From Escherichia phage RB32: a DNA stretch of 64,000 nt. Positions 4,140 to 44,105 of this stretch are shown here, one piece after another. The stretch lies in the sequence record NC_008515.1. The stretch is one strand, 5' to 3'. The notes beneath the pieces are model-generated. The model was not told where the DNA came from. It worked only from the letters and a program-made list of their open reading frames with translations, and did no database searches. The stretch's first letter is position 1. Each line of letters begins with the position of its first letter. Position numbers and translations under genes: made by a program.

Positions 4140-4189
4140 TTAATATCCTCATTGTTTTGGTTTATTTTACCAAAAATTTATAAAGCAAT

Positions 4190-4209
4190 ATAGGAGCCGA
4201 AGCTCCTAT
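4190..4209 (-). terminator. Stem-loop terminator (UUCG tetraloop)
   Basis: TAGGAGC-CGAA-GCTCCTA inverted repeat. Confidence 0.55.
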
Positions 4210-18130: not shown

Positions 18131-18850
18131 TTAGGATTCTTCTAAATGTCTTTTCTGAAAAGTTGATACCATACTACGATACGGTTCATTTGGATATCCG
18201 TGTTTTATAGCTTCCTTTGTAAATTTTCTCCATCCATATTTAGTTTCTTTCCAAAGCTCGAATAATTCATCTTCATACTGCCATATAGTTAAATGAGAAC
18301 GCTTTGCAGCTTTAATTCCATTAATATGCTTTTCTTTTACTGCAGGATTGTTTAGTTTCTTTTTAATAATATTACTAACTTTTCTAACAAAAACTGGGTC
18401 CTTATATCGTTGCGAAGTTTTTATTGAAGTGTTTAATTTAGCTTCCGGCGTGGATGTGACCTCTTTCATCTTTTTCTTCATATGCTGTATATGATTAGGA
18501 TTTTTCCATAAATTTATAGAATGCTTTTTGCATTTTATCCTAGTTTCATCTGCAACCTTTCCTCCTTCACCCCCGTATGACAGGTTAACACAGTTTTTTC
18601 CATATTTCAATTTACCTGCCATGATATATAATATTTCAGCTTGTACCATTTTATCATAATTATCAAAAACTTCTAAAACCGTTTTTGATAATATGTGGTC
18701 ATTTGACACTTTTACACGTTCTATATAATTTCCACTACCAACATACGAATCATTGATGTTATTAGTTATATGTCGACCATAATAGTATTTCTTAATACCT
18801 GTCTTTAAATTTAATATTTCAGTTTTATAGATAGTAAAATATTTTTTCAT
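18131..18850 (-). CDS. GIY-YIG homing endonuclease (seg-like), free-standing
   Basis: 239 aa; YFTIYKTEILNLKTGIKKYYYGRH..YVGSG GIY-YIG motifs; start overlaps upstream gene stop. Confidence 0.8.
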   Translation of the reverse strand: MKKYFTIYKTEILNLKTGIKKYYYGRHITNNINDSYVGSGNYIERVKVSNDHILSKTVLEVFDNYDKMVQAEILYIMAGKLKYGKNCVNLSYGGEGGKVADETRIKCKKHSINLWKNPNHIQHMKKKMKEVTSTPEAKLNTSIKTSQRYKDPVFVRKVSNIIKKKLNNPAVKEKHINGIKAAKRSHLTIWQYEDELFELWKETKYGWRKFTKEAIKHGYPNEPYRSMVSTFQKRHLEES

Positions 18851-38391: not shown

Positions 38392-38700
38392 CTATTTTAT
38401 TCCGCGTGATGCAATTGTGTTCTGCCGTTTAGCACCAGTTTGTTTAAAATCATGATTGTCGATTTGATCGGTACGAGCAACTCCGAATGATGATTTGATT
38501 TTAGCTTTAGATCCTTTAGTTATAGAAATAAACATCTCGGAAGCCCCTTTCTTAAAGTCCGAGGCGATTACTTCAACGCCGTTCTTAGCAAGTGACTTCA
38601 GAATTGCCTCAGCATACTCATCGTCAAGACTCGCCTGAGTATTAATAACGAATGTCTTTGGCGCAGCCGCTTCATTGATAAATTCTTTAAATGTTTTCAT
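38392..38700 (-). CDS. Internal head protein (IP family) with capsid-targeting N-terminus
   Basis: 102 aa; starts MKTFKEFINEAAAP; own promoter. Confidence 0.7.
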   Translation of the reverse strand: MKTFKEFINEAAAPKTFVINTQASLDDEYAEAILKSLAKNGVEVIASDFKKGASEMFISITKGSKAKIKSSFGVARTDQIDNHDFKQTGAKRQNTIASRGIK

Positions 38701-38731
38701 TTTATTTTCCTAATTAATTTTTGATGAGATA

Positions 38732-38761
38732 ATAGTATCACTACCCTATTTAAAAGTAAAC
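38732..38761 (-). promoter_or_regulatory. T4-type early promoter (-35 GTTTAC, 18-nt spacer, -10 TACTAT)
   Basis: Minus-strand GTTTACTTTTAAATAGGGTAGTGATACTATTATCTCATC. Confidence 0.6.
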
Positions 38762-39034
38762 TCATTTTAAATAAATTGCGTATTTTTTATAACCCGCTGA
38801 CTCATGACGAAGACCCTTATCATTAGCAAAACGCTCAATGTTGTTAATTTGATTCTGATCAAGTTCAGAGATGTCAAACACGAAAAAGTTACGTTTGTTA
38901 CCAACTGTTATATAGTCAGTTAAATCAATATCATATAGGTAATTGATGTCAGCAATCAAAGTCTTGACAGCTTTGCTAATTTTTACTTTTTCGTTAAAAG
39001 CAGCTTCAGAAATAAATTCTTGATACGTTTTCAT
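38762..39034 (-). CDS. Internal head protein (IP family) with capsid-targeting N-terminus
   Basis: 90 aa; starts MKTYQEFISEAAF; own promoter. Confidence 0.7.
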   Translation of the reverse strand: MKTYQEFISEAAFNEKVKISKAVKTLIADINYLYDIDLTDYITVGNKRNFFVFDISELDQNQINNIERFANDKGLRHESAGYKKYAIYLK

Positions 39035-39062
39035 TTTATTCTCCTCAGTAGTTGATAGGGTA

Positions 39063-39092
39063 ATAGTATCACAGCTAAAACCCTATGTAAAC
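39063..39092 (-). promoter_or_regulatory. T4-type early promoter (-35 GTTTAC, 18-nt spacer, -10 TACTAT)
   Basis: Minus-strand GTTTACATAGGGTTTTAGCTGTGATACTATTACCCTATCAACTACTGAGGAG. Confidence 0.6.
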
Positions 39093-39104
39093 AACTTTGT
39101 GAAA

Positions 39105-39362
39105 TTACTTTAAATCTTCTAATCGTTTCTTCATCTTAGAACCATTTTTAGCGATTTCTCCTGCATCGGAGCATAATGCTAAAAGCGCTTTAACTTTAGT
39201 TTGGTCTCCTTTAAAAGATGAAGGATCGACTGCAGCAGCAAGTTCTTTAATACGAGAGAAAAGACGCTCAGCTTCAGCTAAAGCCATTCCAAGCTTTACT
39301 TCCATACCGTGGGAAGATTCAGTGATAGTAGTTTTTGTAGCAAACTCTTTGAAAGTTTTCAT
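39105..39362 (-). CDS. Internal head protein (IP family) with capsid-targeting-like N-terminus
   Basis: 85 aa; starts MKTFKEFATKTTITE; own promoter. Confidence 0.65.
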   Translation of the reverse strand: MKTFKEFATKTTITESSHGMEVKLGMALAEAERLFSRIKELAAAVDPSSFKGDQTKVKALLALCSDAGEIAKNGSKMKKRLEDLK

Positions 39363-39434: not shown

Positions 39435-40119
<685 letters not shown>

Positions 40120-40120
<1 letters not shown>

Positions 40121-40845
40121 TATAGTACCTTTAGTGTATTTTTAATTTTAGAAAAAAGTTCTTCAAGAGAACCATCGTTTGTAATTACTAAATCGCCATC
40201 ACGAATTGGCAATCCAGCTTCTGTAATATGTGTATCATTGGATTTTTGACCAGGACGAACTACATGAATTACTGTAGCACCCATCGCCCTAGCCGCATCC
40301 ATTTCATGATCTTGACGGGTATCAGGAACGATATAATAATCATAACCTGAGTTAAATTTATCAAGATAATCTAAAGCAAATAATTTTACCCAGTACATGC
40401 GGTCGAAGTTATTAACAATCAAATCCGTACCTAGGGCTTGCATCAGACGACGGACTGACCATTGATCTTCAATATTATTTATAACGTCAATAATCTTGTT
40501 AAATGCTACGGAATTAACTGATTCTTTTCCTTCGTCATCAAAAACAAACACACCTTTAATTGGGCTTTTACCATTAAGATAGCAAAATGCTTGTTCCATA
40601 ATCGTGATTACTTCTAATTTAGTCAGATTTAAATTAGTCTCACGATCATAGTCAATTCCTTCAAACTCTTTACGAGTTAAGCAAGGATAGTCAGTGTTTG
40701 CTGCAAATACTCCCCATGCATAAGCCAATGCATCCTTAATAGGACCAGCAAGTTGGTATTTAACTGCAGAATAATTGCTCATGATAAAATCAGCAGTAGT
40801 ATCTTTTCCACTACGCTTTACACCGCTTAAAAAGATTAGTTTCAT
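40120..40845 (-). CDS. 1: Deoxynucleoside monophosphate kinase gp1
   Basis: 241 aa from MKLIFLSGVKRSGKDT (P-loop), GAGGAG Shine-Dalgarno; matches T4 gp1 as recalled; track start 40884 is an upstream in-frame Met. Confidence 0.93.
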
Positions 40846-40894
40846 GTGTTTCTCCTCAAATTTAATTAAGATTATAACACACAAAACTGAAGCA

Positions 40895-41425
40895 TTAAAC
40901 TTCTGCTATAATTTTTCCATCTTTTTCTACTTGAAAATAGGTGTAAGGAATCGTTGCAGTACATACTAAAGCCGGGTCTGAATCTTCTGTGTAGCTAAAT
41001 TCTACTTCAGATAGGTCAGAAACCCAAGGCTTATAAAAATTTATTGACATCACTATTTCAGTTTTGCTATTATCTAAGATGTAAAGCGTAATGTACTCAG
41101 GACCTGTTTTTTGGGCAGTATTTTCACCTGTAAGATAGTTGCTAGTTCCTAGCATCCATTCATACATTCCTATCCACGACTTAAGTTCTTCATCAACTAT
41201 AAATCTCACAATGAGTGGATCATACTCAAATGTAACACCTGGACGTTGTGCTCGGCCCAGTCCAAACGGCCCAGTCACGGTATCAGTAACAGGTATTCTA
41301 ATTCCTGGAATAGGAACTGACTGAGCATTTAAAGTAAAAGCAGATGTAGTATTACTATGTGGTATTGATACTACAAAGTTAGTTGTATTTGCTTGGTTAA
41401 AAATTTGTTGCAGAGCTTGCGACAT
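40895..41425 (-). CDS. 3: Tail sheath stabiliser / tail tube terminator gp3
   Basis: 176 aa from MSQALQQIFNQANTTNF.. with GAGGA Shine-Dalgarno; matches T4 gp3 as recalled. Confidence 0.93.
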   Translation of the reverse strand: MSQALQQIFNQANTTNFVVSIPHSNTTSAFTLNAQSVPIPGIRIPVTDTVTGPFGLGRAQRPGVTFEYDPLIVRFIVDEELKSWIGMYEWMLGTSNYLTGENTAQKTGPEYITLYILDNSKTEIVMSINFYKPWVSDLSEVEFSYTEDSDPALVCTATIPYTYFQVEKDGKIIAEV

Positions 41426-41531
41426 ATATTCCTCATAATGCTTTATAACTGTTGGTGGTATAATGGGTCTAAGTCCCTTCCATTCAATTCCATTTAGAAC
41501 AAACAATAGAAAAGAATGGAAGATAATAGAA

Positions 41532-42191
41532 TTAATTTATTAGACTTCTTAAACGAGCAGAAGTCATAAATGGAAATTTTTCTAAAGTTGGCTTTCGCCA
41601 ATATCTTGGATGACAAGTTGATTTAAAATCAAGAACAATTTTCTTTGCTTCATCAATAGTGTTAACTCCAAAGTTATCTAACATTATTTTCTTTTCTTTT
41701 TCCCACCGTTTATTAGCTAAAGCAGATTGAAGCTTTTTGTTTTTAAATGTGTCATTTTTTCTAGAATGAGTTGTTCCTTGTGTCGGACTCCATCCTCTTC
41801 CTAAAATAAATCCCTCAGGAATTATATCTCCATCATGCAATTTTATACATCTTTTACCATTATTATAATATTTTCGTCCAGTTTGTGTATTTGAAATATT
41901 ATTTGCATGTTTTCTTTTTAACCAACCATAAACTTTATTATTTCTCCTAACATATTTAGTTGAAACCGTCATTTTTATGGCTGCATAAGATAATTTTAAA
42001 GAATTTGGGTGTATTTTTACTAATAGCTGATGTGCAACATAATGCTCTTCTGGAGTTAAATCAACCAAGTTAGAAGCATCATTACTACCGCCTAAACATT
42101 TCGGAATAATATGATGTCTTTCTTTATATCCAGTAAGGGCTCTATTGCGAGCCCTATCAATTAGTGAATTATAAATTTTTTCATAATTCAT
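41532..42191 (-). CDS. HNH homing endonuclease, free-standing, inserted between genes 3 and 2
   Basis: 219 aa from MNYEKIYNS; HNH motif [30 protein letters not shown]; basic C-terminal DNA-binding-like region. Confidence 0.8.
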
Positions 42192-43015
42192 CGTACATTG
42201 CTCCAAACTTTGTTTGCAGAGAAACGTTTTCCTTTGGAGTAGAAGCTTTGGAGTGGCATTAACACAACGTTCGCCCAGTCTTTCGGGGCGATTTCAACAA
42301 GGCTACCCATAATATTACCAGGTATATATGCCTTAATCATTTGGTCTGCACCCCTAAATCCTTTCACTTGACTCCAATCAATTTTTAATTTCGTTTTATT
42401 AGTAATAGTAGGTGTATTTGCATATTGCTTTAAAAGCTCTTCTAGAAACTGTTGACGAGCTTTAGGTGGAATATAGTGCAAGTTTAATCCATACATTAAA
42501 TTATGCTTACCTAAACCAAGGTAAATTATTAAAGGAAATTTATCCCAGTAAGGAAGAGTTTCCTTGTGTTTAGCATCATAAGCAAAAGCATATATTCGTC
42601 CCGGCTGCGGGCGAACAACTTTATGTCCTTTTACTTGCTTAATAGTTTCAGCAAACCATTTTCTGGTTTTATTATTAATTGCTGCACCTTCATTACGAAT
42701 TTTATCGCGCAATGTTTGTCTGAATGAATTTATCATAAGCAGTTGTCTTTCTTGCTTATTGAGCTTATTCATTGGTTTTGATTCAAGCTTTTGAATCTTT
42801 TCAGCCGTTTTAATTCCCGAAGCATATTTTGACATTGCCGAAGTAAACGTAGAGTATTTGATTCCTCTTTCTTCAGCAAATTGCTTTCCTGTCATTCCTT
42901 TTGCTTTGGCCTTTTTATATTCAAGACCTATCTGAATCCATTTCTTTTCGTTTAATGATTGCTTAACCTTTGGAACTTGGGGTGTGCTTTCATTAATTAT
43001 TTGAAAAATAGCCAT
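42188..43015 (-). CDS. 2: DNA end-protector protein gp2
   Basis: 275-aa ORF in the T4 gp2 position between genes 3 and 4; length matches T4 gp2. Confidence 0.85.
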
Positions 43016-43467
43016 TATGCCCCCTTAAAGCCAAGAGCTCGTAATCCATCTTCTGTTAGAATTCTAAATTTTATTCCACGCTTTTCAGCTAAAGCTTGCG
43101 CTGCTTTCCATTTGTCAGTATTAACAGAATATGTATAAATTTCATTCATAAATCTTTTCTTCGCTGCGGTTGTTAGATGTGCTGGTTTAACTGGTGGTTG
43201 TGTTTCTTTTTTAGGCTTTATTTCAATAAAAAATTCTTGTCCAGAAGAATCTTTCATCCAAATATCCATGAAGTATCTACGTTTTTTCCCTTCTGCATTA
43301 CAAAAATAAGGAATTACTGCTGTTTCACTACCCCATGCAATAATTTCTGGATTTTTATCTAACCATTCAAAAAAGAATTTTTCCCAATTTGATCTATACG
43401 TAATTTTTTTAGGGTCACCTCTATATTTTGATATATTTTTAGGAACCCATTTTCCAGAATATGCCAT
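43015..43467 (-). CDS. 4: Head completion protein gp4
   Basis: 150-aa ORF in the T4 gp4 position; length matches. Confidence 0.85.
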
Positions 43468-43478
43468 TGGATTCTCCT

Positions 43479-43486
43479 TATAAATA
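43479..43486 (+). promoter_or_regulatory. T4 late promoter TATAAATA for gene 53
   Basis: Plus-strand TATAAATA 29 nt upstream of the gene 53 ATG in the divergent 4/53 intergenic region. Confidence 0.65.
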
Positions 43487-43493
43487 GATAATA

Positions 43494-43501
43494 TATTTAT
43501 A
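43494..43501 (-). promoter_or_regulatory. T4 late promoter TATAAATA for gene 4
   Basis: Minus-strand TATAAATA upstream of the gene 4 start. Confidence 0.6.
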
Positions 43502-43514
43502 AACAGGAGGGCCC

Positions 43515-44105
43515 ATGCTCTTTACATTTTTTGATCCGATTGAATATGCGGCCAAAACGGTGAATAAAAACGCGCCGACTATTCCTATGACAGATATTTT
43601 TAGAAACTATAAAGACTATTTTAAACGCGCTCTTGCGGGATACCGCTTACGTACTTATTATATTAAAGGTTCACCACGCCCGGAAGAATTAGCAAATACT
43701 ATATATGGAAATCCACAGTTGTATTGGGTTTTATTGATGTGTAATGATAATTATGATCCATATTATGGATGGATTACTTCGCAAGAAGCAGCTTATCAAG
43801 CATCTATACAAAAATACAAAAATGTAGGTGGAGACCAAATAGTATATCATGTGAACGAGAACGGTGAAAAATTTTATAATTTAATATCATACGATGATGA
43901 TCCATATGTTTGGTATGACAAAGGCGATAAAGCTAGAAAATATCCTCAATATGAAGGAGCACTTGCTGCTGTTGATACGTATGAAGCGGCTGTTCTTGAA
44001 AATGAAAAACTTCGTCAAATAAAAATAATAGCAAAATCAGACATCAATTCATTTATGAACGACCTTATACGTATAATGGAGAAATCTTATGGAAATGATA
44101 AGTAA
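43515..44105 (+). CDS. 53: Baseplate wedge protein gp53
   Basis: 196-aa ORF at the head of the plus-strand baseplate operon; length matches T4 gp53. Confidence 0.85.
   Translation: MLFTFFDPIEYAAKTVNKNAPTIPMTDIFRNYKDYFKRALAGYRLRTYYIKGSPRPEELANTIYGNPQLYWVLLMCNDNYDPYYGWITSQEAAYQASIQKYKNVGGDQIVYHVNENGEKFYNLISYDDDPYVWYDKGDKARKYPQYEGALAAVDTYEAAVLENEKLRQIKIIAKSDINSFMNDLIRIMEKSYGNDK

Follow-up and report, generated by a model that had tools for sequence, protein, structure and literature searches.

A gene for an HNH protein stands between genes 2 and 3 of a T4-like phage, at positions 41532-42191 of the window (the whole stretch of 64,000 nucleotides that was analysed), where it is an insertion relative to T4, placed just ahead of the stop codon that gene 2 originally used. 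In two genera the very same position is occupied in some phages and empty in others; the element is much younger than the DNA on either side of it and is decaying in some of its carriers. Very probably, this is a Mob-type homing endonuclease gene whose spread, ongoing or recent, takes place by homing into the end of gene 2. The gene is not new to the databases, since RB33 and dozens of related records already list it as a putative homing or mobile endonuclease; what is added here is descriptive and comprises the exact junction, the fidelity to the site and the coupling to gene 2 across genera, the contrast in age between the element and its surroundings, a series of decayed copies and a candidate target.

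The ORF is not a chance ORF, since it matches PHROG 655 'homing endonuclease' (profile search; E 9.9e-59, residues 1-199) and has 2933 database homologs. With the ATG at 42191 as its start, the ORF comprises 219 aa plus stop, as the original prediction had it for 41532-42191 without giving a strand, and its strand is the minus strand. A mechanical ORF of 224 aa begins at an upstream TTG (42206); the orthologs all start with MNY, which supports the ATG at 42191 as the start. The 2.3-kb stretch around the ORF is 100% identical to Enterobacteria phage RB33 (KM607001.1; the window coordinate equals the coordinate in this record minus 32119), which according to the taxonomy belongs to the species RB32, and the RB33 record describes the gene, RB33_147, as 'putative site-specific intron-like DNA endonuclease'. 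Transcription on the minus strand follows the order 4, 2, HNH, 3, with this layout:

41532..42191, minus strand: free-standing gene RB33_147 for a probable HNH homing endonuclease, assigned from the ORF, the GenBank annotation, PHROG 655 and similarity to MobB
42188..43015, minus strand: gene 2, DNA end protector, 275 aa, with the insertion at its 3' end
40895..41425, minus strand: gene 3, tail completion and sheath stabilizer protein, 176 aa, next in the downstream direction
42188..42191, minus strand: ATGA overlap read from the sequence, in which the gene 2 stop TGA (42190-42188) and the HNH start ATG (42191-42189) share nucleotides
41426..41531, minus strand: 106-nt spacer from the HNH stop (41534-41532) to gene 3, identical to the spacer between genes 2 and 3 of T4

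The location between gp3 and gp2, described at the outset as adjacent in T4, was correctly recognised, and in T4 the spacer of 106 nt is all that separates the two genes. The designation of both as tail genes is apt for gp3, a tail completion and sheath stabilizer protein, and wrong for gp2, which is a DNA end protector and no tail protein. The coupling that had been described between the stop of the ORF and the start of gp2 has to be turned around, as it is the start of the HNH gene that overlaps the stop of gene 2 (ATGA).

In T4 (NC_000866) and in slur04, genes 2 and 3 are adjacent and separated by the same 106-nt spacer as in RB33, and alignments define the empty sites precisely to the nucleotide in both Tequatrovirus and Gaprivervirus. 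With the boundary marked by a slash, the T4-type empty site reads ...AAAGTC TGG TCA AAT ATC TAA/TTCTATT and the occupied site of RB33 reads ...AAAGTT TGG AGC AAT GTA CGA TGA-[HNH]-AAT TAA/TTCTATT; the TAA that closes gene 2 in the empty sites is the stop of the HNH ORF in RB33. The gp2 protein is one residue longer in RB33 (...WSNVR vs ...WSNI in T4), and the spacer and gene 3 are unaltered. The corresponding junctions of Gaprivervirus are ...AAATTCA/TAATCTATT when empty and ...AAATTCA[CTTTGAATTATCAG...AAAA]TAATCTATT when occupied.

Within Tequatrovirus, 36 of the 518 records (~7%) are carriers, made up of 35 with the full stretch and CT01 with a remnant, and the remaining records align over 71% of the query, that is, the query minus ~660 nt. 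The comparison of the gene 3-2 junction across relatives which had been proposed as a check thus finds T4 and ~93% of the Tequatrovirus records without the ORF, contrary to the presence in all relatives that would have spoken against an insertion. Nine of ~34 Gaprivervirus records (~26%) carry it at the same nucleotide position, and ~25 are empty. Orthologs beside gene 2 have been recorded as ORF146c in RB32 and ORF161c in VR7, and same-position orthologs annotated 'homing endonuclease' occur in HY03, fPS-2, vB_EcoM_112, Cronus, Ursula and Serratia phages SP1 and 4S. Sampling of IMG/VR with gp2 yielded three close T-even loci only, and the association between alleles reported below was taken from the GenBank phage collection.

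Full-length relatives at 44-65% identity were recovered by tblastn and protein searches, and the orthologous loci with visible upstream context (13 of 13) lie directly 3' of gene 2; these loci are those of Citrobacter phage Ursula, Erwinia phage Cronus, Gaprivervirus TH55, VR25 and VR7, Serratia phages SP1 and 4S, and six metagenomic or assembly contigs. Contig L155 starts at the HNH gene and therefore displays gene 3 downstream and no upstream context, and in contig L154 the HNH gene is followed by a gp4-like gene instead of gene 3, which shows that the element keeps to the end of gene 2 rather than to gene 3. In all 14 occupied lineages, the HNH start either shares nucleotides with the gene 2 stop (as ATGA, TTGA, TAATG or TGATG) or lies 1 nt apart from it.

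A scan for late-promoter motifs found none between gene 2 and the HNH ORF and none adjoining the ORF, and scans for sigma-70-like promoters and terminators at the HNH gene gave results at or below chance expectation. The late-promoter consensus that could serve the gene lies farther upstream:

43494..43501, minus strand: T4 late-promoter consensus TATAAATA upstream of gene 4, the likely source of a 4-2-HNH transcript

Since a late promoter is found only upstream of gene 4 and the stop/start overlap is universal, the HNH gene appears to be expressed late, by restart from gene 2. In Tequatrovirus carriers, a synonymous change in a Ser codon (TCA>AGC) creates GGAG at 42201-42204, 9 nt before the HNH ATG; Gaprivervirus has this GGAG natively and several other lineages lack it, so that it is not essential.

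The HNH motif named in the original prediction corresponds to residues 26-55 of the protein, and its catalytic residues are invariant in 23 full-length homologs, among which H26, H27, N41, H50, H54 and C32 never vary. The basic character ascribed to the C-terminal region was likewise borne out, with 31 K+R vs 11 D+E in residues 80-219 and a pI of ~10. The Pfam profiles HNH (PF01844; 16.5-18.1 bits vs a gathering threshold of 21.4) and HNH_5 (PF14279; 17.8-19.7 bits vs 27.5) score below threshold with the motif residues present, and a sub-threshold NCBIfam match to IscB was discarded as spurious. The AlphaFold model of the protein (mean pLDDT 87) is composed of four parts:

41955..42191, minus strand: N-terminal HNH (beta-beta-alpha-metal) domain, residues 1-79, with predicted catalytic H27, N41 and H50 together with H26, H54 and C32
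41793..41954, minus strand: middle module of the model, residues 80-133, with a helix (88-102) and a beta-hairpin (YYNNG..CIKL..PEGF.GRG)
41742..41792, minus strand: flexible basic linker, residues 134-150, with pLDDT below 50 for 134-148
41535..41741, minus strand: C-terminal four-helix domain of the model, residues 151-219, presumed to bind DNA in a target-specific manner

The HNH core of the model (residues ~1-75) is formed by strands 23-26 and 41-44 and by helix 46-59, with pLDDT above 90. The helix and hairpin of the middle module span residues 88-117, and the four C-terminal helices span 151-217. The middle module is common to many Mob-like proteins encoded at other loci, and its invariant positions in the homolog alignment are G105, Y108, I116, P125, G127, G131 and R132. 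Many database homologs cover ~60% of the query (residues 1 to ~132) at 50-55% identity and continue into other C-termini. MobB of T4 is 45% identical over 126 aa (E 2e-30) and lacks similarity after about residue 126, and a Tequatrovirus homing endonuclease encoded between rpbA and gene 46 in phage teqhad is 68% identical over the first 94 aa, after which the similarity ends. A tblastn search in T4 finds matches in five places, which is the number of T4 mob genes, and genes annotated as mobE or mobD match elsewhere. The C-terminal domain matches gene-2-linked copies only and is the fastest-diverging part among them; a Pfam scan of the C-terminal half gave no match, fold searches recovered no solved homing endonuclease and no significant DNA-binding fold, a sequence search of the PDB with the HNH protein returned nothing relevant, and I-HmuI was not recovered by the fold and sequence searches. 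The model shows separate domains joined by a disordered linker, and the C-terminal half is basic; overall the protein has the appearance of a modular Mob-type enzyme in which a shared nuclease head is combined with a locus-specific tail. An Rfam scan of 40500-43600 detected no intron RNA, so the gene is free-standing; gene 2 is complete and ends at the start of the HNH ORF, which is not located inside a group I intron.

Across 31 Tequatrovirus carriers, the divergence of the HNH gene from RB33 averages 0.45%, vs 2.40% in the flanking 1.64 kb. The flank is more diverged than the element in each of the 31 (Wilcoxon p ~1e-6), which makes the element 5.4-fold less diverged, and some copies are 100% identical to that of RB33 in genomes whose flanks differ by 2.8%. 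Purifying selection could be part of the reason why the element has diverged so little. Four copies are seen to be disrupted: in CT01 an in-frame deletion has taken out codons ~14-176 and with them the HNH motif, FL23 and FL44 share a 1-nt deletion with a frameshift at codon 60, and in Manna the HNH stop codon is lost and the ORF continues in frame across the spacer and on into gene 3. Of the 36 copies, most are full-length, with an identity of 98.8% or more; the intactness of the ORF was checked directly in a few. The idea of a free-standing homing endonuclease insertion, with which the analysis started, is supported by the empty sites in T4, the homology to the Mob group, the low divergence, the decayed copies and the lack of an intron, and every computable prediction of a homing insertion agrees with what was found.

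The flanking DNA that consistently accompanies the element in the carriers examined is confined to the very end of gene 2, where three adjoining segments can be distinguished in alignments:

42188..42209, minus strand: recoded end of gene 2, GTT TGG AGC AAT GTA CGA TGA (T4: GTC TGG TCA AAT ATC TAA)
42210..42235, minus strand: conserved gene 2 block coding for KGKRFSANK, the same in RB33 and T4, a candidate binding site by analogy with MobE
42236..42260, minus strand: variant gene 2 patch (LQSFYS in gp2 vs LQQFVS in T4), a candidate cleavage and immunity region

The recoded junction sequence is found in occupied alleles only, including the deletion derivative CT01. The variant patch is a peak of local divergence, with 10 mismatches in 60 nt vs 1.28 expected (P ~1e-6 per window of the scan), the second highest in ~6 kb, and it is overlapped by a 9-nt direct repeat, ACTCCAAAG, at 42232-42240 and 42246-42254. 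At about -45 to -33, the RB33 state is present in four of the four carriers examined, and the sites at the edges of the patch vary. From 240 nt upstream and 27 nt downstream outward, the markers that distinguish RB33 from T4 form a shuffled mosaic among carriers, and the only flanking DNA common to all carriers examined consists of the upstream patch (within ~30-55 nt) and the recoded junction. This co-inherited pair of patch and recoded gene 2 end is the likeliest candidate for the target and immunity region.

The patch itself may be imported donor DNA, a resistance allele, or both. As a strict marker of immunity it was rejected, because the carrier-type patch also occurs together with the T4-type junction in ~14 HNH-less records (e.g. 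GRNsp7 and PTE-Eco15), and other lineages natively have the QSFQ/QSFY version of gp2; not being exclusive to carriers, the patch is kept only as a candidate immunity region. In the occupied Gaprivervirus allele of TH55, the patch is close to the T4 empty type. A wider reading of the locus holds that one HNH lineage has stayed faithful to the last codons of gene 2 across several genera or lineages, dependent on restart in each, and that the ~14 empty genomes with the carrier-type patch are possibly resistant to cleavage; taken as a whole, this reading is rather doubtful. If these empty genomes were resistant, the locus would present all stages of a homing arms race, i.e. susceptible, occupied, decayed and resistant-empty alleles, and a few synonymous changes together with two non-synonymous ones would underlie the resistance.

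Considered as a whole, these observations are best explained, and with high confidence, by a free-standing homing endonuclease gene of the T4 Mob group that sits at the gene 2 stop and would use a four-step homing mechanism. For the HNH protein we infer endonuclease activity, homing and marker exclusion, which could be brought about as follows. Having no promoter of its own, the HNH gene would be transcribed late, on the message that runs from gene 4 to gene 2, and ribosomes terminating at the gene 2 stop would restart at the overlapping HNH ATG. In a mixed infection with an HNH-less phage, the C-terminal part of the protein would then bind the conserved KGKRFSANK-coding block of gene 2, and the HNH domain would nick or cut within approximately the last 60 nt of the gene or at the insertion point; the specific region of the target and the choice between nicking and cutting are put forward at even chances. 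Recombination-dependent repair would copy the element together with a very short flank from the carrier genome, with the result that the element would be over-transmitted and the gene 2/gene 3 markers of the rival would be locally excluded. What would protect the carrier itself is that its site is interrupted by the insertion and that the neighbouring patch and the gene 2 end are recoded.

Three other explanations address parts of the same evidence. The gene might be kept for the benefit of the phage, as a weapon against co-infecting relatives, a partner nuclease of gp2 or a stimulator of recombination, with its placement reflecting that function. The strict linkage to gene 2 and the conserved translational coupling across several genera or lineages would fit such a role, as would the invariance of the catalytic residues over 44-64% sequence divergence, and a report on SegB, itself a homing endonuclease of T-even phages, indicates that it can help the phage to evade host defence (PMC13096335). 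However, a beneficial gene sits poorly with carriers that amount to only ~7% of Tequatrovirus and ~26% of Gaprivervirus records, with deletions and frameshifts that carriers tolerate, and with empty sites that are precise and belong to phages isolated as plaque-forming viruses; moreover, no link to the function of gp2 was found in sequence or fold. Benefit as the reason for the presence of the gene is thus considered unlikely, although benefit to the phage and selfish homing are not mutually exclusive. It could also be supposed that the RB33 copy is an inactive relic, which persists without cutting DNA in the manner of the defunct I-TevIII in T4. Decay within the lineage (CT01, FL23/FL44 and Manna) and the sub-threshold Pfam HNH scores point in that direction, but the ORF of RB33 is full-length with all invariant residues, most of the other copies are full-length as well within the limits of the check given above, and copies that are 100% identical despite flanks differing by up to 2.8% argue for recent transfer, so that a relic is very unlikely.

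The third explanation concerns the recoded patches, which instead of protecting DNA might form an RNA hairpin that hides the ribosome-binding site of the HNH gene; mobE and I-TevI have been described as having hairpins of this kind. In the minimum-energy fold, CUCCAAA of the patch does pair with the Shine-Dalgarno sequence UUUGGAG, and a second hairpin follows the AUG (z = -2.28). Yet the paired probability from the Shine-Dalgarno sequence to the AUG, 0.53 in RB33, is 0.57 with shuffled distal sequence, and 66% of the shuffles reach 0.53; substitution of the T4-type patch leads to more pairing (0.66), and occlusion at the 5% level is seen in only 2 of 13 lineages. Both arms of the hairpin are also inside the translated part of gene 2, so ribosomes would melt the stem. 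The shuffle test, the chimera with the T4 patch and the 12 other lineages thus lend no support to a hairpin that sequesters the ribosome-binding site; the idea was rejected, and the explanation built on it is hardly credible. Homing by a Mob-type enzyme into the end of gene 2 is retained as the preferred reading.

The importance of the gene beyond its correct annotation is slight; Mob and Seg genes are well described in T-even phages. Its value, a modest one, is that of a Mob-type enzyme with a clearly delimited insertion site, for which natural occupied, empty, decayed and possibly resistant alleles exist in culturable coliphages and a short candidate target at the end of gene 2 is open to experiment. 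The site is also a likely boundary of biased marker inheritance in crosses of T4-like phages, which is of relevance where therapeutic or engineered phages are mixed. A literature search found no paper that characterises a homing endonuclease gene at the gene 2/gene 3 junction.

That T-even phages carry free-standing endonuclease genes of the Mob (HNH) and Seg (GIY-YIG) types is textbook knowledge (PMC2988022), and the count by Petrov et al. for RB32 is two mob-like HNH genes (PMC2993671). ORF146c of RB32, ORF161c of VR7 and the other annotated orthologs differ from the RB33 gene in nothing substantive, and their annotations were made by similarity; the VR7 record of 2010 reads 'putative mobile endonuclease, similar to T4 MobB and RB32 ORF146c', and other records label the gene 'mobB' or 'similar to MobB'. 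With MobB and the other T4 enzymes of the MobA-E series it shares a homologous N-terminal catalytic region, the free-standing state, the placement between conserved genes and the sporadic occurrence among relatives. In contrast, mobB of T4 occupies the locus a-gt/a-gt.2, whereas the RB33 gene is found at gene 2/gene 3, and the presumed C-terminal DNA-binding parts of the two proteins differ; RB33 has no mobB at the T4 position.

The proteins I-HmuI and I-TevIII represent HNH endonucleases without a CxxC zinc site that act as extended multi-domain monomers with a separate DNA-binding part. The RB33 protein resembles them in its HNH motif without CxxC and in being multi-domain, but these enzymes are intron-encoded, unlike the RB33 gene. 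Among the Mob enzymes, MobE is, to our knowledge, the only one with experimental data. Its gene is promoterless and depends on upstream transcription, and the enzyme nicks the neighbouring gene at a polymorphic patch that borders a conserved block, with carriers differing at the patch (PMC2790892). The HNH domain of MobE is related to that of the RB33 protein (~45% identity), and patch and block are arranged in the same way where gene 2 of RB33 ends. In contrast to the RB33 gene at gene 2, mobE is situated between nrdA and nrdB and its product targets nrdB, and mobE has an internal terminator, whereas a terminator scan found none in the RB33 HNH gene.

A parallel in the proposed lifestyle is provided by SegF and SegG, whose genes are inserted between essential genes and whose products cleave the neighbour gene, co-convert the flanks and cause marker exclusion (PMC2988022); they belong to the GIY-YIG family and the RB33 protein to the HNH family. 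In T4, co-conversion after homing mediated by endonucleases reaches no farther than ~2 kb from where the DNA is cleaved (PMC2790892), whereas the tract with a consistent linkage to the RB33 HNH gene spans only tens of nucleotides.

The stretch of gene 2 that differs between phage RB33, identical to the window around the free-standing Mob-type HNH endonuclease gene (HNH), and T4 contains a 9-nt direct repeat, ACTCCAAAG, whose two copies lie 14 nt apart on the minus strand at 42232-42240 and 42246-42254. Each copy is complementary to UUUGGAG at the Shine-Dalgarno sequence of the HNH gene. A test for a hairpin with the Shine-Dalgarno sequence was negative. The RB33-type version of this patch, encoding LQSFYS, is also found in Tequatrovirus genomes that lack the HNH gene, such as GRNsp7 (L145) and PTE-Eco15 (L146), where it is combined with a T4-type junction at the end of gene 2 (about 1200-1272 in these loci). 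Roughly 14 element-free Tequatrovirus records have the carrier-type patch, and genomes of the GRNsp7 and PTE-Eco15 type may once have carried the element, may be partial convertants, or may have empty alleles resistant to cleavage.

In Salmonella phage Manna (L148), the HNH ORF has lost its stop through a 1-nt deletion at codon 218 and runs on in frame across the 106-nt spacer into gene 3 (196-1491 in L148; compare 40895-41506 in the window), the whole being annotated as a single protein of 431 aa. The RB33 spacer is likewise open in the frame of gene 3 (TTG ORF, 40895-41506). The Manna read-through could be a genuine HNH-gp3 fusion or a sequencing error. In contigs of more distant T4-like phages, ORFs that match the N-terminal domain of the HNH protein along about 110 aa, at 46-56% identity, lie on the upstream rather than the downstream side of gene 2 (L013, 1337-1663; L014, 1346-1672; L020, 1611-1940). 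They represent another Mob-like insertion, distinct from that of RB33, in this neighborhood.

Among the 6 kb compared between RB33 and T4, local divergence is highest at about 39848-39958 of the window (13 differences per 60 nt, gaps counted). This peak falls on the boundary of genes 57A and 57B, and RB33 gene 57B is one codon shorter than that of T4. A further difference concerns the following genes:

38392-39362, three annotated small internal-protein genes of RB33 (Ip7, Ip9 and Ip5)

Their products share an N-terminal MKT(F/Y)(K/Q)EF, whereas T4 has a single ipI gene at this place; the site is an already known hypervariable cassette.

Two other genes of the window resemble homing endonuclease genes:

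18131-18850, minus strand, RB33_095 ("putative site-specific intron-like DNA endonuclease" in the annotation), free-standing endonuclease-like ORF of 239 aa
35562-36227, minus strand, segB-type GIY-YIG homing endonuclease gene inside the tRNA cluster, flanked by tRNA-Arg and tRNA-Met

RB33_095, located between nrdC.9 and nrdC.10, matches PHROG 314, "homing endonuclease", in a profile search (E 2e-30), but has no Pfam match, and no similarity between it and the HNH protein encoded next to gene 2 could be detected. The start codon of RB33_095 and the stop codon of nrdC.10 share an ATGA overlap, so that the two genes are arranged for coupling in the same way as gene 2 and the HNH gene. With the segB-type gene, the window therefore contains at least three genes of this kind. 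The mobB gene, present in T4 between a-gt and a-gt.2, is absent from this interval in RB33 (about 4140-4205). The close relatives RB33 and T4 are unlike in their homing endonuclease gene content at several loci.
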